Source: Chrysomallon squamiferum (Eukaryota; Animalia; Mollusca). Taken from it: a stretch of DNA of 64,000 nucleotides. How positions within the stretch are numbered: the stretch's first letter is position 1; each line of letters opens with the position of its first letter. Where the stretch lies: positions 16,926,001 to 16,990,000 of the forward strand of contig CM022676.1 in assembly GCA_012295275.1 (NCBI GenBank), given 5' to 3'. The notes below the pieces were generated by a model, which had not been told where the DNA came from, did no database searches, and saw only the letters and a program-made list of their open reading frames with translations. Made by a program: the position numbers and the translations under genes. Of the stretch, positions 6,245 through 64,000 are shown one piece after another.

Positions 6245-29163
<22,919 letters not shown>

Positions 29164-33326: not shown

Positions 33327-33334
33327 TATTTAAA
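33327..33334 (+). promoter_or_regulatory. Putative TATA-like box TATTTAAA
   Basis: About 50 nt upstream of the ATG at 33381; kappaB-like GGGAAGTTCA at 33259-33268. Confidence 0.4.
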
Positions 33335-33380: not shown

Positions 33381-33594
33381 ATGAAGGGAGTCGCTTTTCA
33401 GTTTGTCTTAGCGTTTCTTTGTCTGCTATTAGCGTTGGCCCAGTCTGTGCAGGTGTCTGACTCAGATGTTGAGACTGTCGAGTCGAAGAGAAGCCACTCA
33501 GGACAGAATCACGGCTTTGATCTGAAGTCGCTTTTTAAACGAGATATCATCCACTCGAGTAAATTAGGAAATAAAATAGTCCAGCCGAAACTGG
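33381..33594 (+). CDS. Exon 1: signal peptide and propeptide
   Basis: MKGVAFQFVLAFLCLLLALAQS-VQVSDSDVETVESKRSHSGQNHGFDLKSLFKRDIIHSSKLGNKIVQPKL; donor G|gtgagt. Confidence 0.8.
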
Positions 33595-34904
33595 GTGAGT
33601 TTGTTTTATTTCCTTTTCCTGTAAAACAACATAATCATTATTATCATCATCATCTTCATCATCATTATCACCATCTTTATCATCATCACCATCATCATCA
33701 TCATTATCATCAGCATATATAATTTTTGAAAGTCTTCTCCAGCTGTCGTTAATCTGTCATTGAAAATATAGTGTCTAATTCGGATATGCATTTTATTTAT
33801 GTTTTTGTTATTATATATCTGTAGTGCATTCTTCTCTGTACTGTTTCCTATAGTTTATGATAATCAAATCATTTTATTGTACACTTCGGACTTCGGGTGT
33901 AAATTCCTGAATTAAAAAAAAAAAAAAAAAAAGTTATATAATACTTAGTTTTGTCAACAATTTTGCAAGGACGATCACTTCTGAAAAAAAATGACGGCAG
34001 TTTTTATGTAATTAGGCTACAATGTGACATGAAATGACCGCCATTCTTTGAAAGCTTAACAAATAATGATGACATACATCTTGTAGTTACTATATTGAGC
34101 TAAATGAACAATATTATTAATAAAGATTTAGCTATGAAGGGTTCACGATAGGCTGGAAAAATAGGGAGGAGTCACTTCTGTCTCTAGACACAAGTGACAC
34201 TTTGTAAAAGAAAAATGAGACAATAAGACATAACCAAGCATTTGTCACAAACATAAAATTAAATATCTACATGTATACATGTTCTGTATCTAATAAAACA
34301 GGGACTTTAACAACATATTTTATACACATTCATGGCATAAGTGATAAAATGATTTAAGAAAAGTTTTATTCTTATGTTTGTTTAATACTACTGGTAGCCT
34401 ACTTTCTCAAGTCTTCACCTCTGCGTACTGGGTTTCTTAATTCTAATCTTTACCATGTCATTCTCTTCAGTCCTTCTCAATTAAAGTTCAATACCTGTGT
34501 TGATTCACACAATTTAAAAAAAAAAAAAAAAAAAAAAGAAAATTCTTGCAGTTTTATTGATTGTCAATTATAATTTCGGTGAAAAATAAAAGGAATATAT
34601 AGTAGTATTTTTGCAGTGTTATTACTAAATATAATTTAATAATAATAATACTAATAATAATAAATAAATAAATATAAATATTGTTTTTTAAAAAGTTTTC
34701 TATAAAATGGTGAACATTTAATAATAATAATCGGCAAATCAACGTGTAATCAGCGGCAAAATAGATATTTAATAAATTTGTAATAAAAAAATATCCAATT
34801 TTTTTTGTCGTTTTGTATATAACGGCAAATAATAATGTAATGAAAACAAAGCTCATTTTCCCAAAGGGAATCCGGTGTTGAAAAGTCCACGCTCTCTCTC
34901 TCTC

Positions 34905-34968
<64 letters not shown>

Positions 34969-35048
34969 CAAATTTAAACTCTCTCTGTGTGCGTTTATTA
35001 ATAAGACAAAACATCAATTAATTATTATCATTATATTATTTATTTATT

Positions 35049-35091
<43 letters not shown>

Positions 35092-35157
35092 GCATATATT
35101 AATATATATATATATATTTTTTTTTTATTTGTATTATTATTTTTTTTTCACGTGAAG

Positions 35158-35316
35158 ATCTTTGGTCTGTTAGGAGGCAGGTAGAGAACGAAACTACTAG
35201 AAGCAAGAGGCTCCGTTATTTCAGGAAATATATTTGGTGATCCCTTCTTCGCACATTAAAATTCAAAAAGAAAACATGCAGTGGAAGGCGCATGACAATA
35301 CAGTACTCTAAACAAG
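35158..35316 (+). CDS. Exon 2: furin-type site and start of mature domain, with internal TGA
   Basis: DLWSVRRQVENETTRSKR-LRYFRKYIW*SLLRTLKFKKKTCSGRRMTIQYSKQ; poly-T acceptor, donor G|gtgaca. Confidence 0.65.
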
Positions 35317-35528
35317 GTGACACACGTCTGCTTCTTTCAGTGTTAAGGTGAAACGGTTTTTTAAATTTAGAGTGTTCATATTTCAACTTTTCGTTGCGGT
35401 TTAAAAAGTGATATTAACAAACACAAATATTCAAATACACGAACAAACACACATAGAGACATGCACATAAATTTTGATTTTGTCTTAATATTTTTGTTTT
35501 GTTTTTCGTTTTATTTTATATTTTAAAG

Positions 35529-35743
35529 GTGGTTACTCTGCCGCTTCAAGTGACTACAGTAAACTAAAAGTGGAGGGTAGCAGGCCAATCAGCGGTAAGA
35601 ATGGACTCCTAGGATACACGGGGAAAATTGGTGACTGGAAAATTACGGTCCGGAACAAGAGCTCGGGAAAAAATCCTAAACCAACCCTGTCATTTACGTC
35701 AAAGGACGGTAGAACTGTAATAAAAATCAGATACGAAAATTAA
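35529..35743 (+). CDS. Exon 3: core of the toxin-like domain
   Basis: GGYSAASSDYSKLKVEGSRPISGKNGLLGYTGKIGDWKITVRNKSSGKNPKPTLSFTSKDGRTVIKIRYEN*; open frame, GC-richer than the flanks. Confidence 0.75.
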
Positions 35744-38700
35744 CAAGTATTTCTTTATTCTTGGTTTTACTTAAAGAAAAGTTCTTCAATAAAAGAAATA
35801 AATTATGTTTAGAAAATTCCTCTGATGTTACGTTATAGTTATTCTTAGACTCATAACTGAAAGGAGTTTTAACATTGAAATAGATGGTGGGATGAATTAC
35901 TTCAATATTAAGACCAGGATTAAGTATGTAGTCAGCATCGTCTGAAGGTATAGGCACAATGGGCGTTGTGTATGGGGACCCCTGGTCAAGTAACACGTGC
36001 AGCCGTATGCGTGTATGTACGAGTATGTACGAGTCCCAGTATGTATGCTGTCAGTGTATGCGTGTATGTACGAGTCCCAGTGCTTTCCTTCATCCGGAGC
36101 CGATGACGCTGAGAAGATGATCAACGAAAATATCTAGCGACACTGAGACACGTATAGATGAATTGTGTCTGTTCGCAGCAAAATGTTTAATGCACTTTAA
36201 AATGTTCTTCTTTTCCATGCATCTTTTACGAAACACTTGAAGTTCTGAACATTAAGTTTATGCAGACTTACCCGTGTTACTCAGTATCGAGCGCTCGATT
36301 TCAATCTACCACAAGGGAGGTAACCCATATTAATTATTGAATGCGGAAGTTATACCTTAAGTGCTATTTTGATCGGTTTGCTTGTCACGTTGCATTTAAA
36401 TCGATCTAATACTTATGATTTCAGAAACAAAATTCCTGACTTTGTCAGCCACGTCATCAAAGTAAGTATATTAAATGTTCTTGTTACATATGGTTATTCT
36501 TCTGTCTGTCGTGTATACATTTTTTGCTAATAACAGGTTACTTGTAGCGATCCTCGCCTGAACTTACTAATTAATATGAATCTTAATAGTAAGTTCTTAA
36601 CTATCTGTTAAACTAAGTAAGCCAAGAACATAAACAACAAACCAGCGAATAACCTTCGGCCAGATTTAACAGTTATTCACATTAGAACTTTTCGTGTAAC
36701 CGTTTAAAATTAATTTGCGAATATTTAATTTTTTTAATTTATATTTTTTGTAGCTTTGTATATACATTTATGAAATTACAGTGTGTTTGTGTGTTTGTGC
36801 GTGTGTGTTGTTTTTATATAAAATGAAACACTTATAAATATTTGATTTCTAAAATTATTCATGCATCAGTGTTTACTTGAAATTAACTTTGTTTGATATA
36901 TCTATCTACTTATCTGTATTTTCGCATGCATACATACATATAAGGAATACCAGTAATACATTTCTCTATTAAAAAAAACAGCTAAACAAGCTATAGACTA
37001 TGCCAGTACTTACTTATAGTAATATCAATAATTAAAGTCTTCTGTAATTTCACTGATCACTTATCCATCTGTCTGTATATATGTGTAATATATAGATATG
37101 CATACACACATGACTGTAAATATATATGCATAAATATAGCTATGTGTCTACATGTATATGTACACTTGTAAGCACACACATATCTGTTGATGTATGTGTA
37201 ATGCATAAATGGATATGTATACACAGATTATCTGTGTATAGATGTCTGTATGTATATATATATATATATATAGACACACACACACAACACACACATAGTA
37301 TTTGTGTTTATAGATATATGTATGTATAATATATACACTATCGACTATCTGTGTGTTTGTATGTGTGTGTGTCTGTATATAGCTGTATGTGTAATTTATA
37401 TACATCACAGTGTCCATACCTGGTAAGGAGCTTTAAAAATAAACCGACAGCAATCTCTATGAAACAATAATTGCATCCATGCACTAGAAACATAAACACA
37501 ACTCATGTTAATGTATACATTATACCCTATCAGCATAAGAACAGACAATGGCTTACCATACTCTTACATAAAGACAATGTCATTTGAAAACACTGCTTTC
37601 CTGCCTGACTATTGGCTATCACGTCTGTTTTCTTCTGACTACGAAATACCAGTCCTTTTAAAGCAAATCCATCACGTTGAAAAATTAGTTGTAAACGTAA
37701 AATGTTGTGTGACAGAAAACAAATTAATAAAATAAATTGTTAACATAATCTGAGTTGAAAAATCAACACCATACATTATGAGTTACAAACATCTTAGAAT
37801 TATTTTCATTACATTTACACATATATATTTGTGTGTGTGTCTGTATTTAGCTGTACATATTTGTAAATTTAGTTAAAAAACTGAATAAAGTTTAAGTAAC
37901 CTGTATATTGCTGAGGTTGTATTAATTTACAATACAATGACACAATATTTAATATATGTAAAGTAGATGATACCACACTTTGATGTAAACGTAATTTACA
38001 CGTAAATTAAATAACAACTCACTGAGCTGTCTCTACTTAGGAAACAACTGCGAAAACAAGAAAACTCAAATATCTGAGTGGTGTAACTGAATAAATGCTG
38101 GTTATATTTGATAATTTATGTCTAACAACAGACCATGTTCCTTCAAATTTGTCAATATTTGTTTGTTATCTATCAGCAGTAAATTTATTATATTCCACTT
38201 TCGATAACAAAATCACTACATAAATTAACAACAGGAAGATGGTGAAACAGTAGGTGCATCCCACATTCTGGCTGCTGTCAGTTCAAATATTCAAAATTAG
38301 TTTATATTAAAATTTGCAGTTTTATTTCTTAGAACAAATTTTAATGTTTCTGTTTATTTCTTTTAAGACTGTTTTAGTTCATGCAGTCAAAGGTTCTAAT
38401 GTTTTTGGTTGTCCAGATCATCTGATGTGTGTATGCATAGTAAATGAAAAGAAATATTTAAAACAAGGAAAAACAAAAATAAATATTTATGTAATAATTA
38501 TTATAGTAGCAATATAGAGCTCTGCTGTATTTAAGAAATAACATTTACCGAGTACAGGTTTCAAAACTTTGATATATCAGGAAAGTGTATTTACTAGTTT
38601 GAGATATCAATATGTCTGCCTCTGTGACTACCTATTTATTTATTGATCAGTTTATCGATCTGTTTCTACATCTACATATCTGTATCTGCAGATAATGACA

Positions 38701-40299: not shown

Positions 40300-40755
40300 C
40301 ATAGTTGTTTGGATAATAATAATTTAATTTTTTCACGCAGGACTCGAAACCAAATCAGTATCTTTACGTGCACATCCAACTACAGATGATTGTAAAATCG
40401 TGAATGGTTCAATCATCCAATACGATTTACCTGTTGTGGATTCTCCAATCAAGCAGAAACAGGAACGTTCAATATCACATTTTCGAAGAATGGATACTAT
40501 TTTCCGTGTAAATTTGATACCATCAATTTGATCGTGACTAAACCAATATAGAAAATCTATCATGCTAGCTTCAGGTTCAGCCAAATCTAAATCATTTGGA
40601 GGTTCCCATGTTCTCAAATAGTCAATAATGGACACTTTCGGATCTACTTTAGAATTCACAATTTCAAGTTGTAACTTCAAAACTCAGTGAAATGAAATCT
40701 GACTCATGATAAAAGTGAACCAACCAAGTGGTTGATTTTCTCCAGGTATTGTACA
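40300..40755 (-). mobile_element. NS1: Endogenous parvovirus-like NS1 fragment (SF3 helicase Walker A region), inverted copy
   Basis: RSCFCLIGESTTGKSYWMIEPFTILQSSVVGC; 40416-40755 is a near-identical reverse complement of 43439-43778. Confidence 0.75.
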
Positions 40756-41033
40756 AATTTTATTTTTGTTTTTGTTTTTAATCAAAATCTACAATAAATT
40801 AAGAATAAATTCGAAACACCAAAGGGAAATAACTTAACCTTTGTATTCATGGAAGTGGTAAAGGAATTATCTCCCACTGTATCAGTAAACACATTTCTTG
40901 ACTGCTCTATGAAAAGGGTTAAACACGATGTAGTTGTTACACAACATTTACTATGAACAGTCATAATTAAAGAAGATAATTAAACAACAACAACATAATA
41001 ATAATAATAATAACAATATTAATAATAATAATA

Positions 41034-42658: not shown

Positions 42659-43778
42659 ATTCATCAACGTGAAGAAACGTCAAACGACTGTCCATCAAAC
42701 AATCGTCACATGCACATCGTATGCAGTAAGACCGGTAACGAAGCATCTGTCGGAAACGACCAGCAGTATCGTGGTATGAAGAAGTTTGCTGAGAAAGTTG
42801 GTCTGAGCGTTACCTCTGCCAAAGTCTGCTCTATTCCTGGTCTCCTTCGTTATCTACAACGAAACGATCAGTACATGTTTATGGGATCTTACGATTTAGC
42901 TCTTCCGGTTGAATATGGTGTGGCTTTGTCTAAAGCACCTGTGATTACGCTAGAACAAACTCTAGAAAATATACTACCACCAGAAGAACGATAAAAAGAT
43001 TTAGAAGAAAAAGACGAATGGAGTAAATGGAGGAAGAACTTTCAGTCTGGTCGAGGAAAACCTGAGACAACTGCATCGGATATTCTTGCCCAGTACATCA
43101 CGTTGAAACTAGAGCATGAAGCGATTCAACAACAACACCGAGAAAAAACACCAGAACCTTTCTCAGAGGATGAAATTATTGTAGATGCATCAAGGAATAT
43201 CCTCTGAACGAAAATCGACAGCTCGATCTGCAGAACAAGTGATCAACGCTATCTATCACCAGAGAAGAGAAGAGCCGTGTAAGCTGCCGAACGAGAGACT
43301 GCTAACAAATTAAAAGTAAGTTCTAAAGGCATGAAAATGACAGAACTAGCTAGTAGATTAATGGTTGTTAGCGTGGCAACAACCAGAGAACAATTAATTA
43401 CTTGGGTTAGAAATTACAAACAAGAAGCAAATAAAATGTGTACAATACCTGGAGAAAATCAACCACTTGGTTGGTTCACTTTTATCATGAGTGAGATTTC
43501 ATTTCACAGAGTTTTGAAGTTACAACTTGAAATTGTGAATTCTAAAGTAGATCCGAAAGTGTCCATTATTGACTATTTGAGAACATGGGAACCTCCAAAT
43601 GATTTAGATTTGGCTGAACCTGAAGCTAGCATGATAGATTTTCTATATTGGTTTAGTCACGATCAAATTGATGGTATCAAATTTACACGGAAAATAGTAT
43701 CCATTCTTCGAAAATGTGATACTGAACGTTCCTGTTTCTGCTTGATTGGAGAATCCACAACAGGTAAATCGTATTGGA
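42659..43778 (+). mobile_element. NS1: Endogenous parvovirus/densovirus-like NS1 (HUH endonuclease + SF3 helicase), pseudogenised and truncated
   Basis: Single intronless frame with internal stops (~42992, ~43205, ~43279): HUH motif RHMHIVC, LLRYLQR (catalytic-Tyr-like), Walker A LIGESTTGKSYW. Confidence 0.75.
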
Positions 43779-44186
43779 ACAGTCGCCAAGCAAGGACGTA
43801 CTTTCTGACGCAGACGGACATTTTGAAACTTGAAGGTATTTTGTATTTTATTGTAATTTAATATATGCCGTACTATTATTACTTTGCTTAAATCAGATCA
43901 GACATATTGAACATGTAAACTATTTTGTCAAGGCTATATTTTTTTTTTGTAAATTGTCTTTAACGATTTTTATTTTTTTTATTTTTTTTCTACCTAACAC
44001 ACTCGTTTATGGTAAATATCGAAGAATATTTGATGATAACAACACCAACAATAATAAATAAAAAAAAAAAATACTCAGAAGAAATAAAAATAATAATGGT
44101 ATCGTCATTATAATAATAATAATTATTCTATTAGTAGTAGTAGTAGCAGTTGCAATAGCAGTAGTTGTAATACTATCGCCTAAATA

Positions 44187-48794: not shown

Positions 48795-49010
48795 AATGTT
48801 TTTCACATGTCATCAAACAGCACAAACAGTGATGTCACGTTCACATGGAACAACGAATCACGTGATCAGTATATAAGTAACAATAGTCAAAAACAGAGGT
48901 TTACAGGTAAGCATGGTTACATTTATCGGAATATTTTGATATTCGTGTCTCGCTTGTACCAGGATGGAGACGTGATTTTCTGTTCTGTAGTCAACACAAA
49001 CATCTCCAAT
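48795..49010 (+). pseudogene. Orphan decayed Ig (C2-set-like) exon
   Basis: FTC, frameshift, then SNSTNSDVTFTW...YRNILIFVSRLYQDGDVIFCSVVNT; truncated by a (CA)/(CT) tract. Confidence 0.6.
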
Positions 49011-49025
49011 TTTAAAACACACACA

Positions 49026-49131
<106 letters not shown>

Positions 49132-50148
49132 CTGCATTTTTGTTGATGTGTTATTTATATAGTGTGTGTGTGTATATATATATATATCTGTGTGTATATA
49201 TAGGTGTGTGGGTGTATACAGTAAAATGAGTGGCTTGTGTTACGGACTTTTGATTCGCAGAAGAATCTGCTGATTTTTTGTTATTAGGTGAGATCGGTGG
49301 AACGGTCGCTGTCCACTGAACGCACTGGATAACTAACTAGTCACACCCACATACACGCGCACACACGCATACACACACACGGACACACACAGAGGCACTC
49401 ACAGACACACACACACAGTGGACTCACTTGGGACCAGCGAGGTATGCCCTTTTAAACAGATCGCCGGTTTTTAAACATTTTATGAAAAATGTCATATTTC
49501 AAACTCCAGAACTCTACAGTTTTTCAGGATAATAGAATTTATGAATTGTTTTACGAAGAAAAGGGACTCAGTTTTATATCAGCACTTTTAATAGCTTGAA
49601 AATTATACGTTACTGAGTTGTTTTCTAAGTATTTCAATTTAACACACTTTGCTATTATCTTACATTTCTTACAATGGCGTTACCTTTTAATATAGTATCT
49701 CATTTCACACATACACACACACATACACAGACACACACATTGTTTGATAAATATAACATAACGTGAAGCTATTTACGAATGCGGGACAGAAAAGTAAAGA
49801 TCAAAATGACATAATGAAATCTTAGACTTTCGGTAACGGTTCAGGTATAAATGAGAATAGCCTCTGTGATTTAATTAATTAATAGCAATGAAAAACAGGA
49901 TGCAAATATGACATAATAATCGTATATATTTCATTAGTTGAATAATCTAAATACATACAGTTTGTTTCTATGCTTGAAAGAGAGACTGCACAAAAGACAG
50001 GTATGATGCAAACGTTTTAAGTGTCACGTTCATTAAAACTAATACAATATCACAAATACAGGCAAACTAGAAGTATAATTGTAAATTTAATACATTTGAT
50101 TATTTTAATAACTGTAATTAATCTAATCTCTCTCTTTCTCTCTCTCTT

Positions 50149-50234
<86 letters not shown>

Positions 50235-50495
50235 ATACACCTACATATATATGCGCATACGTGTGTGTGTGTGAAACAAGTCTGATTGAGTAAAATTATT
50301 ATCTTCTGTCAATATAACTAAATTGATTTCCCGATATTAATTATTATATGAAATGTGTTGATAAAGTCGAGCTGATTCGCCCTGTGTTTATCTACAGCTT
50401 TGTCAATAAATTTACAGAGAAGTGGACTGAATTTTATTTTAGCTTATTTAATAGCTTACAAAAATAAACTTAACTTATATTAAGAGATGTTGCCG

Positions 50496-50548
<53 letters not shown>

Positions 50549-50977
50549 ACAAAACATTATATTCTCTTTTCGATATATATATATATATTTGTCATTTCGA
50601 ACTTTAGATTTGTGGGGAAGATACATACGCACACATTTTTTTCCCATGAAAGAAAAGGTTGAAGAGACAAAGTGAAGTCTCCCACGTTTGTTCAGTTAAC
50701 CTCCAAAAAAGGACAGAAATCTTGAATATGGCCACTGTAAGGAGATAAAGATAAGATTTTGTTTTCACTGACGAACAAAGGAATGTTTTCTTCTTCTGCG
50801 TCTATCTTTCATTTCTTTTTTCTTTTTCATTTATACAGCTTTTCATGTCTCCATTCACCGTATAAACCAGTTTGAAATATGTTCGAACAATATGTTGTTT
50901 ACTGAAGCGAAATTACTCTGTTGTTTGTTTTCACGGGTGAATAATAAAAAAGTTACAAGTGTTTTATAATGACAGGT

Positions 50978-51408
50978 TTATTCAGGAGTAGTATAAAGAA
51001 AACACTCCACACCCAAGGATGATAAAAAGATGATCGTCTTGTTAAATAAAGCAATAAAGTACATTACAATTAAACTAATACATAACGATCTCTCGACATC
51101 AAGTAGAAGGTTAAACACTTGTTTTTTGTGTACTTCGCAGCTGCACGACTTTGCTAGCAATTTTTTATCAAACACACATCACTTGATGAAAGTCTTCTTT
51201 GAGTTAGAAGTCTGAAAAACTGTTTTTGTCGATCCTTTTTCATTGTACTTCTCCTTCAATTCGTTCAGTTCAAGCAGCAGTGCTTCAAACAGCTGTGTTT
51301 CATCATCATACTTCAATTCATTCAGTTAAAACAGCAGTTTTTGATCATCATCCTTCCGTTTATTCATTTCAAACTGCAATCTTTCATCGTCATTCTCGTG
51401 TATGTCCT
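50978..51408 (-). pseudogene. Relic exon with acidic ~13-aa repeats followed by a Cys-containing segment
   Basis: EDIHENDDERLQFEMNKRKDDDQKLLF*LNELKYDDETQLFEALLLELNELKEK...FIK*CVFDKKLLAKSCSCEVHKK; a ~39-bp repeat is visible in the DNA. Confidence 0.4.
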
Positions 51409-52051
51409 CTAGGTAAGAATAATTTACTGCTCCGTATTTTGAACGCATTATGCTTTTGTTATTTCACGTGTTTGCTTATCTTTTTGTCTTTCAGTTTGTT
51501 CTCTGACTACTTAATTTATTAATGCAACTTGTTTCATTTTACCGTTATGTTTAATGTTTCACCTTGTCTTTTGGTGTACAAGATGGGTTTTTTCCAGTTC
51601 CAATTCATGTTTTGACGTTTCACTTTAGGTTTACACGTTTCAATATAACTTTATTTTGTGAAGTAAATAAAACTCCTTAATAGCACACTGAAACAAAGAA
51701 ACTAGAAACCAATTACTTTTTGTTCATCCTTCATTATTATTTTGACAGATGTATGTATGTTTATGTATGTATATATGCGAGTGGAAACATACAAACATAT
51801 ACATACAGATATATACATATATACACACACACCCAAACACACATACAAACACACATACAAATATATTTACAGAAAAATACGCACTTACGAACTTTTAAAG
51901 GCAGTTTTTAAATTGTAAAGTTCCGTTAATTGGCGGCGAAGATACAGCGAGTTCAGTGTGACAAGCTAAACCAGCTTTCAATTTTGTCCTATTCAGTGGC
52001 TTCTATTTTTCGCACACATACAACACACAAACATAGATCACTCACATATAC

Positions 52052-52094
<43 letters not shown>

Positions 52095-52369
52095 TATGTG
52101 TGTTTGTGTAACTTAAATTTATATTAATGTAATACATTTATTTTCATAAATTAGAACGTTAATAAAATATCTACAGTTAATATACGTAATAGAAATGTGT
52201 GAAATGAAACACAGTGTCATAGATAACGTGTTTTACGTTAAGTAAAATCGAGATTATCTATTTTATTTTCAGAACCTACAAAATTAATAATAATAATAAT
52301 AATAATTATAATAAAAGCATATCAAGTATATACATAAACATATACATATACATACATACATATATATAT

Positions 52370-52412
<43 letters not shown>

Positions 52413-52647
52413 TAAGTCTACACATCTGCCGTCAGTGGATTAAGTAAAGGAAACTGGATACATTAACTTATTTAAAAGTTTTCATCTTGCATTATAATTT
52501 GTTTTAAAGAGTAGGCAAGGCTACAACATACAGTAAACCATATTGGATATTTATCTTTTTCTTTTTTAAAATGTATTTTTTCCACTTCATTTGTTTTTAC
52601 CAAACTAAAGCTTAACTCATACGCATTATTTATTTTATTTATATTAG

Positions 52648-52680
52648 AATCGACAACATCAGAAACAACACCATCAAGCA
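52648..52680 (+). CDS. Candidate 33-nt Ser/Thr-rich micro-exon
   Basis: ttag|...|gtaagt, phase 1-1, ESTTSETTPSS; parent gene unclear. Confidence 0.4.
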
Positions 52681-54942
52681 GTAAGTAACATAATCACATT
52701 GTTAGCCCTAACCGTGTGCTAATCATTCACGTTATCTCAGTTCCCCTTCCACTGTTCTTAATAAAACCCTCTGAAATATTAATATGCAAAATCACTAATC
52801 AGAAACTGGTCAAGAATGCTTGAAAATTATCATTTTCACAATATAATATGATCTCATCTAATCAACACATTTCATTATTAAATTAACGTAAATTATGCAA
52901 GTTTGTGGAATCTGAGTAAACACAGACTTAAGACAGCCATAACGAAGGTGTTTGACTCGGGCAAAATGATGGATACCACTGATATGGATGATACCAACAT
53001 AGTGGTCATTGCTGACATCCTAGTCTCAGTAAAATTTCCAGCCAATGTTATATGCGTTCAATTTAACTGGTTAGTGGTAGACAGAGTTCAGCCAGTCACT
53101 GTACAAAACGTGCAGATTCAGTGTTTTTTAACCTCTATTAATTTGCCTTACAAGCAGACAAAAACATGGAGAAAAAGATAAAGATTTGCTTATAAACGGA
53201 GTGTTGTTTCTTTGATCATGAGTTTTTCTGTGAATTAATAACTGCACTTGCAAAACGGGATGTTTTAAACACTACACGTAGAACATGTGCTGAAACTCAA
53301 CAGTGAAAACCATGTTAAGCATCTTACAAGTATTAGCTCTGGCTGCTTTTAGCACCATTGGAAAGCTCATAAAATATGTAGCAAGAGGGGAATAAAAATA
53401 AAATGAACATATTTTTCTTTCAAAAAAGGTATATTTCAAGCATAAATTACAATATATTATAAGCAGTCGAATTACCACTGTAATATCGTGTCATAGAGGT
53501 AACTGAATATATATTCGGCAGAACTTAGAGTTGCAAATACTGAAAAGCTGTGACAATCATAGTAGGTTCAGTTGATTATTTTCAGTGAAGAACATTGGCT
53601 GCTGGCGGTTGTAAACCGGTGACTGCACAGAACAGCTCGTTTAAAGAATGAAACGCTTTTGCGTTAATTTGTGGTTGGATTTTGAACAGGTGACTGTTAG
53701 ACGAGTTTCGACTCTGTCTCTGTGTATGTATGTATAGGTAGATAGGTAAACAGACAGTCACAGATACACTTTGATAATTCAAAACTGAAAAGTATCAATA
53801 AAATAGTTTAACTTTCAGGGGATTCAAATATTTACAGCAGTTTCTTCTAATGAATATACATGTACAGGCCTCTATATATAACCATATCTCTATATGTATG
53901 TATGTATGTATTCAGATTACAAACATATTTCACACAGTTCTCTTAACTCACATTTAAATTGCAAATAACATGATTCCCACAATACACTCCTTTGTAAATA
54001 CAAAGAAACACCAATGAGTAAGAGTTAATGGTTCCCTATGACAGTTCTTTGAGGACTGTATGCAATTATATATTATGGAAAAAAAAAACAAAAAAAAACT
54101 TCGCCTTACATAGACAGATGACCAATAGCAAGTTAATTTTATTCCGCTTAAAGAACAACTTACTATTCTCTGCTTTGAATTTTAGGAGGTTAATTTCAAT
54201 TAAATCAATAGTCTAGGACCGCCAAAATGTAAGCATTTGAATTTTTGAAGGTCATTACTAACGGACATAAGAGCTCGGCTGGGACAAGACTTCCACTTCT
54301 GGAGACAGACGTACTTGAAAGATATGAGTACGTGTGTGCTGCTAGATATTTGGTAGTAATTAAAAGATTATTTATTTATTTTAGATGAAACAAACGGAAG
54401 CGATTCTATATTTTCTTCAATGATTTATGTAATAATCACGTAAGTAATCTTGTAACTATTTCCTTTTTATTAGTTATTTAATTGTAATATTAATGTTATA
54501 AGCTTTACTCTCAGTATATCTGCATGTATCATCTGAACATATGTCTAGTATCGCTCAGTCTGTTTGTTTCTGTGATTCTGTATATCTACTTTTCTGTCGG
54601 ACCGTCTTCTTTTCAATTTTTTCTGTATGTATGTATATATGTACTATCTATATGTACATACAAAGATGTGCCTATATCGGTGTATGTAATGCTGTCTGTC
54701 TACATATATTGTCTGTTTTGATGTCTGTATGCCTTTCTTGTCTGTTTCTCTGCTTTTCTATATCCGTGTGTCTAATAATTCTTTGTTGATCATGTTTGTT
54801 TCATCTTTTTATCTTTCTTCAGTTTTATCAACACCTTAGTCATCACTGGTTTGCTATAGATCTACATACTCCTCAGAGATAGATAAAATATTGACAACAA
54901 TCTAAATTATATTCTTCTTTTTTCTTTGGGTTTTATCATCAA

Positions 54943-54978
<36 letters not shown>

Positions 54979-56270
54979 GATTATTATAACTTGCTTTGTA
55001 TATTTATATATGTATTAATATGATTGTATTTTTTGTCTAGTTGTATATCCCAAATGAAATATATTACATATATATAGTTCTAGAATTTAATTTGTAAGTA
55101 AATACAATATTGTATTTAGTGTGAAAGACTGAGCTTATAACATTTTGACAGTTACTTTTAGAATAATTGGATAGAATTTAAAACTGTTTTTCTGGCGGTA
55201 ATAGAATGTTTGTTAAGCAGATTATAATTATTAGTTACGTAATAATTACGAGTTTCTTTTTGTCATTTGTAAGTAAATAGTGAATTAGTATACATCTGGC
55301 AAATACTTGTTAGAATTACAAATCAGAAGTAAGTGATCAGTTAGAATGCTGGAATATTTTCAGTACATTTGAAAGCATTTCAGAAAAGAAGACATTTTTA
55401 TAAGAAAAGTGTTGGCGCTGGTTGTTAGTATTCTGACAGTTATTAATGTGTTTAAATATTTATAAAATTATTGAAATTCTTTGTTAAGGTTGAAGTGTTT
55501 TAATATATTTTTTGTTCCATATTTAAACAGTTTCGAATTTCAACTATGGTGTTGTTTCTACTTTATTTATGTTAATTCAAATTTTTCTCTGTTTGAATTT
55601 AGTCTATTCAAAGTTAAATTTTCTTTTGAACATGTCATTAAAAAGAATTTTGACGTGTCCGTAACTTGTATGTTATGCTCTTTCACGCACTCGTACAGCA
55701 TGGCGTGCCTTACTAAGCTGCCCTGTTTTCACTATTCTCGTGAAAACGGCTAAAATAAACTCATCTGTATTATGAGACTAATCTTTAAAATAATACAATG
55801 ATGCAATACATGAACTTCAAAGGTTATTATTTATTTAATTAGTTATCTATTTATTTATTATTATTATTTCTGCTAAAAAATTGGAGACAGTTATTAACCT
55901 GAGCTTATGGTAAAATAAAGATAAAAACATATTTTTTTTTTTAAAGATTTTGTTGTTTTTATATCAAAAAATCAGTTATTGTTCCAGATTAATTCTGGGC
56001 GCGAGTACATTTCGTAATATTATAGAAATTATGTGTCAAGTGCTTTAATATACATGCTCCATGTACACGTCTTAATTATATATATACTGAATGATTCGAA
56101 TTTCAACACTGGCAATAACGCTTTCACTTTCTTCTGCTATTATTTTAAGTGAATCTTTTATCTTTAAAATAGTTACATGTGTTAATGATTTGTATATAAA
56201 TAATTTTTAAAGTTATTAAAAGTTTCTCCTTTCTGTATGTTCCGTTTGTTATTTTAAAAATACGTGAGAG

Positions 56271-56303
<33 letters not shown>

Positions 56304-57344
56304 GAGAGAGAGTGTATTTCAGTTATGTTAGAGAGCTGTAATAAAGTGACAGTGTAATGATATTAAATAGATTGTTGTTCTTTTTCATTATTGACTGAAC
56401 TTTGGTTTATAAGGCAAGATATGATGTCATCCTCCTTTCTACTTCTATCTTATTTGCTGAAAATAATAACGAAACGGATATTTTCAGACAATATCTGTAA
56501 TAGTGAGATATTTAAATATGTATTTATTGTAATAAAAAAAAATGTTCATTGTAAGCTGGTTTTAATTTCTTTCAGCTGATTTGCTATATTACTTTTGTTT
56601 ACATTGTGTTCTAAACGACCAAATGATTCCGCTTCAGTTTGTATTTGGGTTTTGATACAAATAAAATAATGACTTACTGACCGATTCATTAAAAAGTCAC
56701 CATGTAAACAGCTGTAGATTATTCGTTACATCCAAGAATATAATAAATGTGGTATACGGGTGTGAATAACAAACTAAAAGGATCATGCCTACCGTTATCG
56801 ACATTACGAGGAATCTGCGGAAATGGAGTTGGTGGACTCAGTGTAACAAGACAATCTGCAAATGTTGTAACTTTGAAGATTTCATCTTTTGATGAAACAG
56901 AACATGCAGGAAACTGGACAGTTGACGAAAACAGTATGTTGTCAACTCAAATCAGTTTACATCTCCATTTGCTAGTAAGTTATACACATATTGACAGAAA
57001 CTAAAACGTTCTATTAATATGTCTATGAACACAAGTAATTACCTAAAATAATAATAAAAAGTTTCAAAAACGTGTGCGTGATGTGTTTGTGTATTTGTGT
57101 GCTATTTGAAATAGACGTGCAGATATTTGCAAATAAGATTAATAACAAAAAATATGAAAATGTTTCCAACTATATCATTTTCTAATTCGCATAATTCAAA
57201 TATGCCACCTTAAGTATTCAGGAACATCTTGACTTCTATCTATAATTAAATACAGAATACTCCTTATCTTTATCTTTAAAATATACCTTTTTCAAACACT
57301 TACTGCATTCACTTATGGTATTTTATTATTTTCTTTTGCTAAAG

Positions 57345-57496
57345 CTATCGTAGATAGATCTATGGTTAATTTTACTGATGCGTGTCCAAATGTGGCAGAC
57401 ATTGATTCTCAGACAGATTTTACAGCCAGCATACTGACTGGCTGTATTTATGCAACTGTTAACATTTCCTGGTATTTTGTGCACGAAACTTACGTG
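57345..57496 (+). CDS. Atypical Ig-like domain, first half
   Basis: IVDRSMVNFTDACPNVADIDSQTDFTASILTGCIYATVNISWYFVHETYV|gtaagt; phase 1-0. Confidence 0.65.
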
Positions 57497-57918
57497 GTAA
57501 GTTTGTGTCCATGAATAGCAAACAAACAAACCGATATCAAGGCAATATTCGATATTTAATGCCAAAACTGAAATATTTATAAAAATTACGATTTGATACA
57601 AAAAAAAAGGAAAAATATTTGGTATGAAGAATTCTTTTATTATAAATAGTTTGAAATATACGAAAGATTATCATTAAATTTAATTTATAAGTTTCATTAA
57701 TAACTATTATATTTTACCAATAATTATATGTTATAACATTGCATTTAAATTGAAATCTTGTATATAAGAAATGATATCAGAAAGTGTTTACTTTAACTGA
57801 TGATATCAATTTATATATTACAGAATAATGTGTAATTATCAAATTAAAAAAAGCAAAAAGACAAACATAATTCTTGTTTAAATGTATTTATTATAAATTA
57901 TATTATTTATAATTTAAG

Positions 57919-58102
57919 AACTTGACACCAGTTACTACAACATACAGTAATGGTTGTACAAGCCCACAAGTTAAAACAGCTGCCAGGCTGACTCTGAATT
58001 ATTTAACTGTACAAGGAAAAGTTAATGTAACAATACACATGATTCATCCCTCTTTTAATGATGAGGTTTATGACAAGTTTATTTGTACCATTAACTTTCC
58101 AA
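57919..58102 (+). CDS. Atypical Ig-like domain, second half
   Basis: NLTPVTTTYSNGC...ARLTL...VNVTIHMIHPSF...ICTINFP|gtaagt; phase 0-1. Confidence 0.65.
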
Positions 58103-58404
58103 GTAAGTAAATGTTAAATATCCAAACTATTATGTGTTTTTATTATTTGAAGTAAATATAGATAGCTTTCTCCAATTTTTATATATGGTCACTCATATGT
58201 AATCAATTACTGATCTACGTTTATGAAGTTACTCAATATTTGAAATATTTATTTTGGTTTTCTAATGAATATAAATAAACAAATAAATAAATAATATTTT
58301 AATCCACGTTAAGTATGATACAGTTATTGCTTTATTTATTTACTTATTTAGTTATGTATTTGTTTGTTTGTTTGTTTATTTATTTATTTCTATGCTTATT
58401 ACAG

Positions 58405-58719
58405 TACAGGTAAAAGAGGTGACACTATTAAACATCAGTTCACAGAATGATAAAATACAAGTCAGTGAAGGTTATGTCACTTTGACATGTGTCACGTCAC
58501 CGAGCAACCCAGTGTCATCTGTTTACTGGTACAAGAATAATCAACAGATAAACACAGGAATCACCAACATAAATATCACATCAGAAGACCTGACTGTAAG
58601 AAAGAGTTGTGTGTCACTCACACTGACTGAGTCAGATGATGGACACAGCGTTTACTGCAACGCAGGGATTCCTGGACAAACTCTTGTAACATCCAACACT
58701 GGAATACTTGATGTGTCGT
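58405..58719 (+). CDS. Ig C2-set-like exon (nephrin/hemicentin type)
   Basis: VTLTCVTSPSNPVSSVYWYKN...DDGHSVYCNA...LDVS. Confidence 0.9.
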
Positions 58720-58968
58720 GTAAGATATTTAACATTAGAAATTTAAAAGTGTTTAAGTAACTAAATAATTTCTAAATTACCTTAATACTTTTGTTTCTAA
58801 AAAAAAAAATATACAATTTAAATGTTAATACATATTTAATACAGTTTTAAATTTATTATTATTCCACTCTTCTTTAAGTACGTTTCTTTACTGGGTTTTT
58901 TCTTGATCCAGTGTTCAGATATATCAGTTACAATTCTAAATATTTCACTATTTCATTAAATTTTACAG

Positions 58969-59280
58969 ATGGTCCATCACAGAATGATGTCAGCATCAGT
59001 TTTACAAATTATCAAACTGCAGTTGAAGGACAATCTTTGACCTTGACCTGTAGAACACTGACACCTGCTAAACCAGATGTGGATTTCATCTGGAAGTTTA
59101 AAGATGGAACACGTATTAATGGAACAAGGGGAGATAAACACGGTTTATCTGGAAATACTTGGCTTCAAACATTAACTCTGACACCCAGTAGAGTACAGAA
59201 TGGGAAGAGAATCCAGTGTACTGTGAGAAACACACATACACAGACTGAGTCTACAGGAGAAAAGTTTCTGGATGTGAAAT
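58969..59280 (+). CDS. Ig C2-set-like exon with GC donor
   Basis: EGQSLTLTCRTLTPAKPDVDFIW...QNGKRIQCTVRN...LDVK followed by gctagt. Confidence 0.85.
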
Positions 59281-59408
59281 GCTAGTTTATAAAAAATTGG
59301 ACTTGGAGATAATATATATTTAATTTTGAAAATGTTATTTAACAAAATAAATAAAATCAAATAATAAAATTAATAATAAAAAAATAGCATAAATATTTCT
59401 GATTTCAG

Positions 59409-59687
59409 ATCCACCAAGTTCACCTCCAGTTGTTTCAAGAACAACGTTTCTTGTGTTTGAGGGTGAGAATGTCACACTGAGCTGTTCTACAACTGGTGGA
59501 AACCCAAGACTAAATCTAAACTGGACTTGTTATAATCGTGTACACTGCTCTGACAGAGGAGAAACCAGAACATGTACAATATCTTTCATAGCTAATAGGA
59601 CTCAGAATAACAAAGTGTGTGAGTGTGTTTCTAGTTGGAGGTATGGTGAATACAACGACAGAAAAAGCAGAAACTTGACTATTTACT
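59409..59687 (+). CDS. Ig C2-set-like exon
   Basis: PPSSPPVV...EGENVTLSCSTTGGNPRLNLNWTC...RTQNNKVCECVSSW. Confidence 0.9.
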
Positions 59688-59731
59688 GTGAGCAATTTTA
59701 GATTGTTTATAATTAATATATATAGCAATAT

Positions 59732-59971
59732 ACTTTACTGCGTGGGTCCAGCTTTTGCACTTAAGAGATATCCAGATTAACAGATGCAAGTAAATACAAT
59801 TCTCCTATTACAACATGAAATATCTGTTTGTTAAAAGAAATCATTCTTTACGTTAAGAATGATTTCTTTTAACAAACAGATATTTCATGTTGTAATAGGA
59901 GAATTGTATTTACTTGCATCTGTTAATCTGGATATCTCTTAAGTGCAAAAGCTGGACCCACGCAGTAAAGT
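59732..59971. repeat. 240-bp near-perfect palindrome
   Basis: 117-bp arms that match exactly by eye around the centre tacgtt. Confidence 0.95.
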
Positions 59972-59972
59972 T

Positions 59973-60245
59973 GGTTAAGTGGCGGTCTTACGAATATATG
60001 AATTGCGTCCAGAAGCGTACAGGTTCACGTACAGTGAATTGAAGAAAACTGAAGGTCAGAGTTGTGTAGAATATTTCGCGAAACATGCTGGATTATTTGA
60101 AGGCTTACGGCAATTGTTAGTACTACATGATCTTAAATATGGGTTACCGGTTAATTTGCGCCCTCATTTATAGAACATGGGTTTATATATATATATATAT
60201 AATACAGGATGCGGCGATCGTTGCTGATGATTTCATGTTAATTAA
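59973..60245 (+). mobile_element. gag: Ty3/Gypsy (Gmr1-like, SCAN-related) gag fragment, decayed
   Basis: AVLRIYELRPEAYRFTY...KTEGQSCVEY...LRQLLVLHDLKYGLP...QDAAIVADDF resembles the YELxPEAYRxxF...LRxLxxxExF...AAxxADxY gag pattern. Confidence 0.7.
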
Positions 60246-61520
60246 CGAAACTCAATCAGGGCAGGGGAATTCCAGTCGTCATGGAGAAAAAAAGACATTT
60301 TAGGGGGGGGGGATTTCTGCATAATGCTAATCACATGTGTTAATCAAGTGGTCAGGCGAGAATTGTTTTTGGTTGTCAGAAACAGGATAAACCACGAGTA
60401 TCTCCACATGCGAGAACATTCTAATTGATTGAAAAAGTTCTGATGATGTTAACTTAAAGGATAACAAATTAACATCCACTGGATTCTTGACTCAATTTGA
60501 ACATACCCTAAGATTTGTCGAAATTGGACCAGTAGCCTAATATTCTAAACTAAATGAAGGTTATAGGATCTTGAGGAAATCAGGATATGGAATAGGTTTC
60601 ATAATGCAGGCGAGGTATTTGTGTAGAAATGAGGAAACATAATCAAGATGATGTAGAACAGTCAGTCATGTCAGTGTAGGTCAGAAAGGTTCATCGTTTT
60701 GAACTAACATATTTAGTATGTTTAGCAAAAATGTGAACATTAGTTTGTCTGACTTATTCCAATCTATATGTGACAGAATCATGGTTTATCTGCTTGATGA
60801 CTCTGAGAACTGCTCGTTTTCTTACACTTGACTGCACTGTCTTGTGTTACTCTGTTGCACACGAATGATATATTACAGGAAGACATAAAAAAACACAAAA
60901 AAAAAGAAAAAAAACAACAACAACAGAAACCCCCAAAAAAAACCTTAAAGTGAATGACAGGAGTACTGCTTTGTTGTTTTATCTGTTATCACAAAATCAG
61001 TTTCTTGCAGTAAGCTTTTGAAAGAAATTAGCAGCTTCTGACACTTATTAAATGTTTTGACTTTAACTTTATTATTATTATTTTCGATCAGACACAAAAT
61101 GCCTATATATCAGAATTATTATTTATTTGACAATTTCATTTATTAATGCCAAAATAAATTTGAATTATCTCATACTATTGATTATAGCTATTTTGAATCA
61201 AGGAGAGTACGATTTAACAGTTAAAAAGTTAAATGTCTGAGCACGGGTGTATCTTTATAGATATCAACTTTTAAGTATATTAATGTTAGAAACATTGGTA
61301 GCCGATGTTTATAGCAATACTAGAGATAGAGCGACATTTTTATCTTACTCAACTTTACCTTTGTTACCGAATATCTGTTACATAATTTTCTTTACAAGGG
61401 AAATGATATATGAGTATATACATGTGTGTTTCTTTTTTGTTTTGTTTGTTGTTGTTTTTTGTATTAAACAAATCATTATATTCTTACTGACAGATCTTAT
61501 ATAACCTATTATTATTTTAG

Positions 61521-61665
61521 TACCAGTACGATTAGTAAATGGAAGAGGAATACCAACACAAGGTCGAGTTGAGATTCAAGTAAACGGGACGTGGGGAACA
61601 ATCTGTGATAACAATTTTGATGAGAAAGATGCTTCTGTTTTATGTCACATGTTAGGATTTAGTCG
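61521..61665 (+). CDS. SRCR first half (type A), gene 2
   Basis: [48 protein letters not shown]. Confidence 0.92.
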
Positions 61666-61861
61666 GTAATTCCTTCATTTATTTACATAATTACTTACTT
61701 ACTTTCTTACTTAGTTTGTGAACGAGAATATTTTATACAGATGTAATTTATTTGATTTTACTGAGAATGAAAGTTAGTGATGATGTGTCCGTGAAATACT
61801 TTTCGACATGATTATAATAATAATAATAATAATAATACAAATAACAAGAATGATAATAATC

Positions 61862-61914
<53 letters not shown>

Positions 61915-62241
61915 TGCTATGAGAAAAAGAAGAAAAAAAGACAGCAAATACAACAAAAAGTAACAGCAATAATAATTTCTAGCAATGTTGATCTTGAGCT
62001 TTATAGGAAATATATTCAAGTCGTCTTCGAGTGATAAAATTTCGCTGGCGATATTTACACTATCCTTGTGGTAGCAAAGCCTTCATGTTAAACATAGTTG
62101 AAATCACTTAGAAAGTAAAACATTTCTTATTAAAACGTCAGGACTACGAGAAAGTCTGTGAAGGCGTTGTGCAAACAATGTTGAATATTCATTTTACTGT
62201 ACATATTATTTATTTTCAAAGGAATATTAATTTTGTTTAAG

Positions 62242-62411
62242 TTTTGGTGCAAATCAAGATAAAACTACTCGCTTTGGAGAGGGAACGGGACGAATATGGA
62301 TTGATGATCTGAGATGTGATGGAGATGAAGACAGTGTTGAAAAGTGCTCATTTCCTGGCTGGGGAAACCACTACTGTGGTCACTGGAACGATGCTGCAAT
62401 CAGCTGTCAAT
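62242..62411 (+). CDS. SRCR second half, gene 2
   Basis: [56 protein letters not shown]. Confidence 0.92.
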
Positions 62412-63478
62412 GTCAGTTTACATGTGATATTTATTTTATTTTATTTGTATTTAACTGTTTATCCGTAACAAAATGTTTTAGCTTGTTGTCATCAAAATTG
62501 TCCTTCTTGTGTTTAATGTTGTTGTACCGAAGTCTGTATCTAACTTTATTTGCCTTTAATAAGAACTAAAACAAAACAAAACAATATCAGGTTTGGGTAC
62601 AATAGTTAATAAAGAAACTAGGTTCAAAATAATCTAAATTAAAATGAGTTATATTAATGATGCAATCGTTTCGTATTTATTAGTTTAGTTGTTTGTTTGT
62701 TGGCTTGGTTTTCGTTTGTTTGTTTATTTGTTTCTTTGTTTGTGTGTTGATTTCTAATTCACGTAAGAATTATTATAGGCTGTTAGAGATAATCATATAC
62801 CATAACGATGGTTACAACAAAGGAAACTCATTGTTGAAATTTTGCAGCCAGACTTGTTGACATATAAATTGTAACTAAAATATATGTGACATTTTATTTT
62901 ATGTTATGTTATTTAATTTACCTGTTTATCAGTGACAAAAGGTTATATTTATAAGTTTAATTTTATAATAATCAGCTTCTCACTAAATAGTTTTACTTTT
63001 TACATCCACAAGCTTATTTTCGAATATTCTAATCACCATCTTACATTCGGTCTTTTATTTACTTTCTGGATGGGGAATCCTTACACTCAAATGTCATTAT
63101 CCGTTAGATGTCTCTAGTAGCAACGGCATACATTACGTTATGTGATTCAAGATTGTCTTTACTTATGAATATAGTTAGTTTGTATTAATTAATCCATAAA
63201 TTAATTAATTTATTGATATGCATTGTGGTTTTATTTTAAATTTGTTTATTTTTTCTTCATGTTAAAATTTGTGAATGTCATAACATTATATAGTGATGAA
63301 TATATGAATGTATTTTATTATTATTTTTCCTGTTATACATACTTTCTGCAGTTTAAAGGTCCATTTCGCTTATACAAATAATAATAATAATCAAATTATC
63401 TGAGAGCTCAATTTTATTTTAATTATTTTTTTTTTTGGTATTATTCTTCTTCTTCTTCTTCTTCTTATTATTATTATA

Positions 63479-63532
<54 letters not shown>

Positions 63533-64000
63533 TTGCATCCATATTGTTTTTGTTTTAATTGGAACATTTGAAAACAAAGTGTACACGTGATATTGGATAT
63601 AAATGATCTTTATAACAATAATGATAATCTTCTTTTATTTATGTTTTGCTTTACTAGCTTTTATCAGGACTATTTTTAAAATATTATATTTTATTTAGTA
63701 TGACATTTAAAATGCATTTAATTGCCTTAGGATATCAAATTAAAATCAATTAGACTTCAAATGATGTAGTCATAACAAAATTAATTAATAGTCTTACATT
63801 TCATTTACTTAGAATTGGTTTCTTTTCATTTTCACATTTATTTACTTAGTTACATCTGTCGTATTTTAAACCTTTATTTCAATATATTTTCTGTTTTGTA
63901 ATACATATACCTTGATGCTATATGTTGATACATGTTTCAAACACTAGTAGTTTGTATGGTATATTTGTGTTCAAATGAACACTTGTTGTTTCAGATGACG

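Follow-up and report, generated by a model that had tools for sequence, protein, structure and literature searches.

The question raised by this locus is whether an animal has taken over the killing tip of a bacterial polymorphic toxin and, if so, to what use the tip may have been put. The DNA concerned, referred to here as the window, is a stretch of 64,000 nucleotides from the mollusc Chrysomallon squamiferum (assembly GCA_012295275.1, contig CM022676.1, positions 16,926,001 to 16,990,000 of the forward strand), and all positions below are counted from its first letter. Within it lies a small gene of three exons, the predicted product of which is a precursor that ends in a very basic domain. 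The original prediction regarded this domain as the C-terminal tip of a bacterial toxin, turned into a domesticated antibacterial effector and located inside an immune receptor cluster. The genes on both sides do indeed encode receptors with SRCR, Ig and FN3 domains. The reading that we favor, with a probability of around 55%, is that the gene is a copy, broken by a stop codon, of a multi-copy and intron-containing gastropod family, that its tip derives from one ancient transfer, and that the family encodes a secreted antibacterial enzyme.

Organization of the Chrysomallon gene

The features of the gene are as follows.

33327..33334, + strand: TATA-like TATTTAAA, putative; such motifs occur 7.1 times per kb in the window
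33381..33594, + strand: exon 1, coding, with the predicted signal peptide and most of the propeptide; 214 nt, phase-1 GT donor
33480..33491 (aa 34-37) and 33531..33542 (aa 51-54), + strand: KR sites of exon 1, read from the sequence
35158..35316, + strand: exon 2, with the end of the propeptide, RSKR, the basic leader and the first strand of the tip (QYSKQ); 159 nt, phase 1-1, skippable in frame
35199..35210, + strand: RSKR, predicted furin-type cleavage site (aa 86-89), where the precursor would be cut
35211..35264, + strand: basic and hydrophobic leader that follows the cleavage site (aa 90-107); in relatives it is amphipathic, here it is weak and interrupted
35238..35240, + strand: in-frame TGA in exon 2 that breaks the Chrysomallon window copy; codon 99 of 195
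35280..35740, + strand: polymorphic-toxin-like tip (aa 113-194); intron 2 (35317-35528) splits its conserved GG motif
35529..35743, + strand: exon 3, coding, with the stop TAA; 215 nt
35788..35802, + strand: two AATAAA (35788 and 35797), plausible poly(A) signals, putative; 2.2 per kb in the window

In the window sequence all of the exon boundaries are GT..AG and the joints are phase-1, as had been proposed, and a single internal stop interrupts the 195 codons of the spliced frame. The predicted signal peptide covers approximately aa 1-22; its mean Kyte-Doolittle value is 2.69 at aa 4-20 versus at most 0.05 elsewhere, in agreement with the secretion signal originally suggested. The two KR sites and RSKR are also found as described, and the region that follows RSKR is as basic as claimed, with 25 lysines and arginines and 5 acidic residues in 106 codons. 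What had been overlooked, in a mature region correctly recognized as carrying a toxin-like tip, is the leader between the furin-type site and the tip. In the window copy this leader has a hydrophobic moment of 0.41, a value that 22% of shuffles reach. The GC content of the exons is 0.40-0.45 versus 0.40-0.43 for neighboring host exons. The TATA-like box and the AATAAA motifs are present, but they carry little weight because the window is AT-rich and both are frequent there, and because a spliced contig (from run X1, below) begins upstream of the TATA-like box. No second copy of the toxin-like gene is found within the 64-kb window.

Splicing, copy number and variation

Splice joints were read from contigs of public sequencing runs, 12 of which were listed and six different ones examined. 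No run is recorded as RNA, and the RNA origin of the small assemblies is taken from their splice joints. Both junctions are found in spliced contigs: exons 2 and 3 are joined, with 212 nt skipped between GT and AG, in two of four runs (X1 and X10), and exons 1 and 2 in two of four (X1 and X9). Run X10, which comes from organism B and another study, shows the same exon 2-3 joint. It also includes a contig in which exon 1 is spliced straight to exon 3; this exon-2-skipped form is in frame, 142 aa long and stop-free, but is without the furin site, the leader and the first strand.

The in-frame TGA means that the window copy cannot yield the full protein as read, and this copy very probably makes no full-length product. 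An assembly error is an unlikely source of the stop, since the X1 contig is identical to the window over exons 2 and 3, with the same TGA and 0 other letters, although X1 may be the window's own sample. A sense codon occupies this position in all of the covering contigs of X3 (3/3) and X4 (2/2), and for this reason selenocysteine or readthrough at the TGA is disfavored. Intact paralogs exist, and relatives in other gastropods are described below. The idea of a working domesticated effector gene holds in so far as the gene is spliced and toxin-homologous; it very probably does not hold for the window copy, the break in which had been hinted at only through the word "repaired".

Single contigs of X4 carry one further stop and one 7-nt deletion. 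The genomic-size runs X2, X3 and X4 contain many overlapping variant contigs, with identities down to about 80%, which indicates that the gene is either multi-copy or highly polymorphic. Among the variants listed (40 of 78 and 40 of 60 rows of the variant tables), 9 of the 18 in exon 3 are synonymous versus an expectation of 22% (p 0.0085; 0.06 if the expectation is 30%), none of them falls at an invariant residue, and only 1 of 12 in the signal and pro-regions is synonymous (Fisher p 0.024 versus exon 3). The synonymous excess in exon 3 may be seen as a hint of purifying selection.

Read-through from the neighboring receptor gene

One further feature is needed to describe the relationship with the upstream receptor.

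28188..28217, + strand: 3' end of the TM-like exon in the SRCR-Ig-FN3 receptor gene that lies upstream; spliced to 33234 in an X1 contig

This X1 contig, the first 30 bases of which are 28188-28217, passes from the end of the receptor TM-like exon to 33234 and then through exon 1 into exon 2, with a stop preceding the toxin ATG. The transcript is a read-through from the upstream receptor gene. Its joint has one extra G versus a canonical splice on the window letters, and a stop follows within 7-14 codons either way. In an X9 contig, the end of a paralog-like TM exon (25 of 29 aligned bases identical) is joined out of frame at an internal AG (near 33431-33433). On the basis of these two joints, it appears that more than one copy of the toxin-like gene is paired with a receptor gene and transcribed together with it. 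The phases would permit an in-frame receptor-toxin fusion, but a stop comes first at both of the read-through joints observed, and no fusion protein is seen among the contigs examined.

Relationship to bacterial toxin tips

The motif given in the original prediction, written as a DNA pattern, finds 95 loci in bacterial and archaeal genomes. A strict in-frame match is present in 55 of these, and the 40 without one were left out. Removal of 11 more, which are truncated or not C-terminal, leaves the 44 bacterial C-terminal domains that make up the profile, each preceded by 60 aa or more and followed by a stop after 10-22 aa; the window itself was excluded. On this profile the spliced piece that follows the internal stop scores 46.4 bits (best of 5000 shuffles, 9.8) and exon 3 alone scores 33.4 bits (best shuffle, 11.5), while the best of 2032 other six-frame segments of the window reaches 4.4 bits. 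With the seed motif and everything to the right of it removed, the score is still 30.7 bits versus at most 11.2 for shuffles. Single bacterial tips are up to 42-45% identical to the window domain over 74-79 aa. An HHalign value of 98.5% was not counted because the alignment contained the query.

Set beside 156 bacterial tips, the window tip keeps R166, S169, P176, T177, L178, R192 and Y193 and departs at two positions that are 97% conserved, with S179 in place of E and W in place of G. The acidic residue of PTL[E/D], found in 97% of bacteria and in all five animal relatives, is the one absent from the window copy. By sequence comparison, homology of the window domain to a bacterial polymorphic-toxin tip is established beyond the seed motif, much as the original prediction had proposed, and there is little doubt about the bacterial origin of the domain.

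Exon 3 alone has no match in Pfam, NCBIfam, PDB sequences or word-index protein searches, and scans of genomes, viruses and metagenomes for loci related to it found nothing. A tblastn search of exon 3 against plasmids and phages gave only matches with E values of 5-10, the best of which was examined and judged to be due to chance. In the Atlas the top matches are bacterial clusters without a name (0.92-0.94, with recognition below threshold), which serve as leads only.

A bacterial toxin and immunity-like family

The motif of the original prediction belongs to a real, unnamed family of polymorphic-toxin C-termini, as seen from both the profile and the carriers. The bacterial domain caps toxins of the RHS, LXG, CdiA and MafB types, and RHS, LXG, PT-TG, VENN, haemagglutinin or MafB domains are present in 17 of the 27 carriers that were scanned. 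A wider search finds 191 proteins; in each of the 120 listed, the domain stops no more than 6 residues short of the C-terminus, and all named proteins among these 120 are bacterial. The tip is also found in one phage (two records) and in six plasmid-collection records. Directly beside the stop of the tip an ORF of 122-176 aa begins in 35 of 36 loci with enough flank, and 28 of the downstream proteins align as a single family with a putative immunity-like role. A metagenome locus, L098, harbors the same tip behind a signal peptide, among RING-domain genes and without a gene of the immunity family. It had been suggested that the pro-region of the Chrysomallon gene takes the place of the immunity protein; as a copy of that protein it does not qualify, since it does not resemble the bacterial immunity family. 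Its net charge is +1 in the window, although the pro-region is acidic in three relatives.

The tip family corresponds to no Pfam or NCBIfam family and has no match among PDB sequences, the downstream family has none in Pfam or among PDB sequences, and 45 tips and 28 downstream proteins gave no match to the Pfam Ntox and Imm families. A name for the bacterial family was not found in the available portions of bioRxiv 2021.10.19.465003, PMC13483458, PMC12994826 and PMC3482391, with the motif also sought in the supplements of the last three. The family could already be named in the supplements of bioRxiv 2021.10.19.465003 or PMC3482391, or in the Salmonella STox alignments.

A family of gastropod precursors

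A phmmer search with exon 3 (a single 70-aa query) against 1.84 billion representatives gave six matches, five of which are true relatives; the sixth, P0224, is a repeat protein matched by chance. The gene does not stand alone but belongs to a family found across gastropods, the members of which are as follows.

Gigantopelta aegis: 131 aa; no signal peptide in the gene model
Littorina saxatilis: 320 aa; propeptide net charge -36
Haliotis rufescens and Haliotis cracherodii: 200 aa; 7 members, three adjacent loci; propeptide net charge -10
Bradybaena similaris: 235 and 251 aa; adjacent; propeptide net charge -16
Unnamed Logan protein: 188 aa; phmmer relative

The named animal matches are in gastropods only (4 of 5 clusters, with 1 lacking a name), and the animal relatives score 37-63 bits on the bacterial profile. 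They share a layout of signal peptide (4 of 5), propeptide, basic cleavage site and a mature region of 105-138 aa. At the position of RSKR the cleavage sites read RPKR, RKKR, RLHKR, RHRR and RIKR. One relative, P0226, has a propeptide of net charge +1, like the window. The first 18 mature residues are predicted to form an amphipathic helix, with a moment of 0.43-0.60 in 10 relatives that fewer than 4% of shuffles reach in 9 of the 10; for P0226 the site was taken three residues late.

The annotated relatives sit on gastropod scaffolds of 25-95 Mb, and XP_046361800.1 (Haliotis), XP_070206393.1 (Littorina) and BFZ07225.1 (Bradybaena) are examples of intact ones. Tandem copies are suggested by three neighboring gene numbers in Haliotis and by two in Bradybaena. 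In a quick unrooted tree of 93 columns a single branch (SH-aLRT 94) separates the eight animal rows from the rest; a pairing of the window with Selenomonas (support 95) is gone once the animal relatives are added, all of these trees being unrooted and of few columns. Haliotis, Littorina, Bradybaena and Gigantopelta represent four major gastropod lineages, so that one transfer of Palaeozoic age is the simplest reading, and one ancient horizontal transfer into gastropods is likely. No account of the gastropod family was found in the literature covered, motif and accession queries included, with subscription papers outside that coverage.

Fold and proposed mode of action

The AlphaFold model of one bacterial tip, L020 (m6c7fd3461e5c), has a pLDDT of 92.5 and consists of a strand, a helix and five strands. 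A single-sequence model of exon 3 (pLDDT 63.8) has a helix and five strands, and no clear fold match. The BECR fold, according to the available text of PMC3482391, consists of a helix and, after it, a meander of four strands with S or T in strand 4, and the same text lists two-arginine sites for Tox-RelE. In the L020 model the fourth of the strands that follow the helix begins with the invariant T73, a correspondence read from strand order and not from superposition. Judged by strand alternation, R64, T73, E75, K84 and R86 would lie on the face opposite the helix. The tip family is without a conserved histidine.

The best fold match of the L020 model is the teneurin ABD (Z 7.6, rmsd 2.5, 77 aligned, 20% identity); fly teneurin gives a Z of 5.9, and the next matches are nucleotidyltransferase and glyoxalase-like folds. 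Among the top 50 the only toxin is the CdiA-CT 5t86_A (Z 4.5, rmsd 2.9, 61 aligned) and there is no classic BECR RNase, while a comparison with viral structures gave no match. Because superposition ranks the teneurin ABD first, RNase activity is only the best guess, and the odds that the predicted mode of action is enzymatic cutting of RNA are about even.

The mechanism that we propose applies to intact copies, and we infer every step of it beyond the sequence layout. The signal peptide would direct the protein into the secretory pathway, which would keep the domain from the cytosolic RNA of the host without an immunity protein. Until a furin-type cut at R-x-x-R/KR, the tip would be masked by the propeptide, which is acidic in three lineages. 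This cut would expose a cationic amphipathic helix that resembles an antimicrobial peptide, and the helix could carry the basic tip of 85 residues through bacterial membranes, replacing delivery by RHS, CdiA, LXG or MafB proteins. Inside the bacterium the tip may cut tRNA, rRNA or mRNA by means of two invariant arginines and an invariant threonine, exposed on the open side of a BECR-like fold made up of a helix and a meander.

Alternative readings

From what the sequences suggest, intact copies probably have an antimicrobial role, and the alternative that survives best retains this role along with the bacterial origin. In it the mature protein is a plain cationic, membrane-active antimicrobial and the old active site is just a scaffold. 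The mature regions carry a net charge of +14 to +25 versus a median of +2 for the bacterial tips, the leaders resemble helical antimicrobial peptides and the Chrysomallon lineage has lost the conserved E. However, all five animal relatives retain VR, PTL[E/D] and RY, none of which a function based on charge alone would need, so that we consider this reading unlikely.

It is less likely again that the enzyme, while bacterial in origin, targets eukaryotic cells or viruses (fungi, parasites, predators, or infected or dying cells of the host itself) and not bacteria. Some polymorphic tips do kill fungi (available text of bioRxiv 2021.10.19.465003). An amphipathic leader could enter eukaryotic cells, and the signal peptide, RING-domain neighbors and missing immunity-family gene of L098 fit such a target. 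The adjacent immunity-like gene, however, is near-constant in bacteria and is a mark of antibacterial use, and the gastropod locus adjoins SRCR receptors. In addition, the named gastropod hosts are to our knowledge grazers and are not known as venomous.

A domesticated and non-toxic product, such as a secreted signaling, shell-matrix or mucus protein, is improbable. It would have a parallel in teneurin, the toxin-derived C-terminus of which became a signaling module, and it draws on the fold match to the teneurin ABD and on the fact that hormones, too, are typically made as furin-processed precursors. Multi-copy families in tandem, the presence of broken copies and a rapidly changing pro-region instead fit defense genes that evolve by birth and death. 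Finally, the reading in which no bacterial transfer took place, the domain being a detached and vertically inherited teneurin ABD, a convergent small fold or a contaminant, is very improbable and already largely refuted: the teneurin ABD does top the structural matches of the bacterial model, but no teneurin sequence is found at E 10 with either exon 3 or the family profile when bacterial tips reach 42-45% identity, and contamination is excluded by spliceosomal introns, host-like GC, animal neighbors and relatives borne on large gastropod scaffolds.

Comparison with known systems

A close parallel to a secreted antibacterial enzyme of this origin is found in the domesticated amidase effectors (Dae), which come from T6SS Tae toxins and are likewise interbacterial toxins acquired by animals as antibacterials; nvDae4 kills Gram-positives and is infection-induced (available text of PMC8713801). 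Dae, however, cut peptidoglycan from the outside, whereas the cytoplasm is the predicted site of action of the gastropod tip, which has no sequence relation to Dae and has gained a propeptide, a furin-type site and an amphipathic leader. The BECR RNase tips (Ntox7/21/36/41/47/48, Tox-RelE, and CdiA-CT Kp342/A0 34/86) are also C-terminal on RHS, LXG, CdiA and MafB proteins, and share with the tip family the adjacent immunity-like gene, the helix and meander, the S/T of strand 4 and conserved arginines; the nearest named Atlas clusters, Ntox37/47/21, score just 0.81-0.83. Ntox7, compared by description, has DGx+xhR, an N motif and an Imm8 partner, while the tip family has DGxxxxVR, one residue longer.

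The teneurin C-terminus (ABD and Tox-GHH) is likewise part of an animal gene derived from an RHS-type bacterial toxin (available text of PMC3482391, PMC13018210 and PMC5851990). Teneurin acquired the complete RHS scaffold and turned into an adhesion receptor, whereas gastropods took the tip alone, into a secreted precursor of 190-320 aa, and teneurin has no sequence match to the gastropod tip. Other toxin domains that have passed to eukaryotes are listed in PMC3417536, and the gastropod tip was not seen among them in the available text. A different kind of likeness is that to antimicrobial peptides. Helical antimicrobial prepropeptides consist of a signal, an acidic pro-region, KR and an amphipathic helix, which is the same precursor layout and leader chemistry as in the gastropod family. 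In the gastropod proteins, unlike these, the helix precedes a folded, toxin-derived domain of 85 residues.

Implications

The animal-domesticated antibacterial toxins covered here (Dae) act on the cell wall from the outside. A toxin tip that acts in the cytoplasm needs an entry route and normally also an immunity protein. The gastropod family appears to meet both needs with eukaryotic parts, namely secretion, a propeptide, a furin site and an amphipathic leader. In its fullest form, which we put forward tentatively and at somewhat less than even odds, the proposal is that a helix resembling an antimicrobial peptide and a captured interbacterial RNase tip together make up a self-delivering antibacterial enzyme of gastropods that would kill from inside the bacterial cytoplasm. 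In the Chrysomallon lineage the gene would make up a sensor-effector unit together with SRCR-Ig-FN3 receptor genes, from which it would be transcribed in part and with which it would be duplicated in tandem, and the tip family may represent the ancestor of the teneurin ABD. The gastropod family would constitute an unrecognized group of effectors in gastropod immunity, farmed abalone included, and would provide a natural blueprint for antibacterial enzymes delivered by peptides. The gastropod finding also points to a widespread and unnamed toxin/immunity family in bacteria.

Receptor cluster and virus-like element

The toxin-like gene lies in a window that also contains the following features.

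About 1-29200 and 48800-64000, clustered, duplicated SRCR-Ig-FN3-TM receptor genes, one of them inverted
1320-1519, assembly gap of 200 N
1868-2104, weaker palindrome (79%)
40333-40782 (-) and 42659-43861 (+), fragments of virus-like sequence that include a Walker A of the SF3 helicase type
59732-59971, near-perfect palindrome (99%) of 240 nt

The region 60400-64000 repeats 16100-28100 at 70-87% and leaves the window at a TM-like exon, and therefore another toxin-like copy may follow beyond the window end. The virus-like sequence, in which the Walker A reads GESTTGKS and the Pfam match is to PPV_E1_C (E 0.039), is probably an endogenous parvovirus-like element; a 367-nt part of it is present twice, in inverted orientation, at 97.5%.

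Read-through and splice forms

Splices that read through from receptor TM-like exons into the toxin-like gene are found in two sequencing samples, apparently at two different copies. In a contig of one sample, 28188-28217 of the TM-like exon is spliced to 33234 in window coordinates, and in a contig of run X9 the end of a paralogue-like TM exon is joined near 33431, inside the toxin-like gene. Phase 1 is common to the TM donor and the acceptors of toxin exons 2 and 3, and an in-frame receptor-toxin fusion is therefore possible from the sequence; none was seen among the read-through contigs of the two samples. A contig of run X10, from organism B, joins the end of exon 1 (33594) straight to exon 3 (35529), and the open frame of this exon-2-skipped form encodes 142 aa, without the furin site, leader, and first strand.

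The tip family in other settings

Members and partners of the tip family include:

L061:3580-3957, immunity-like gene of a family without a name, with an invariant E (alignments A3/A4)
L098:4572-5135, metagenomic tip preceded by a signal peptide and a stretch rich in Arg, Ser and Thr
MG727702.1:17533-17793, tip in Paenibacillus phage Likha, annotated toxin-like, 75% to the tip of locus L020

Of 5426 E. coli genomes, 587 carry DNA related to the L061 immunity-like family; in the 25 matches listed, this DNA spans the immunity-like gene only. A second, unrelated downstream family lies 3' of the tip in L038, L049, L062, L064, L066, and L073. At L098, which looks like the DNA of an intracellular bacterium, the tip gene is surrounded by secreted RING-domain ORFs and the immunity-family gene is absent; judged from this sequence, the tip is possibly reused against the host.

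The top structural match of the L020:1033-1299 model is the teneurin ABD (Z 7.6), across the whole domain. Because a modeled bacterial tip finds its best match there, the teneurin ABD may once have been a toxin tip, and not a domain that binds antibiotics.
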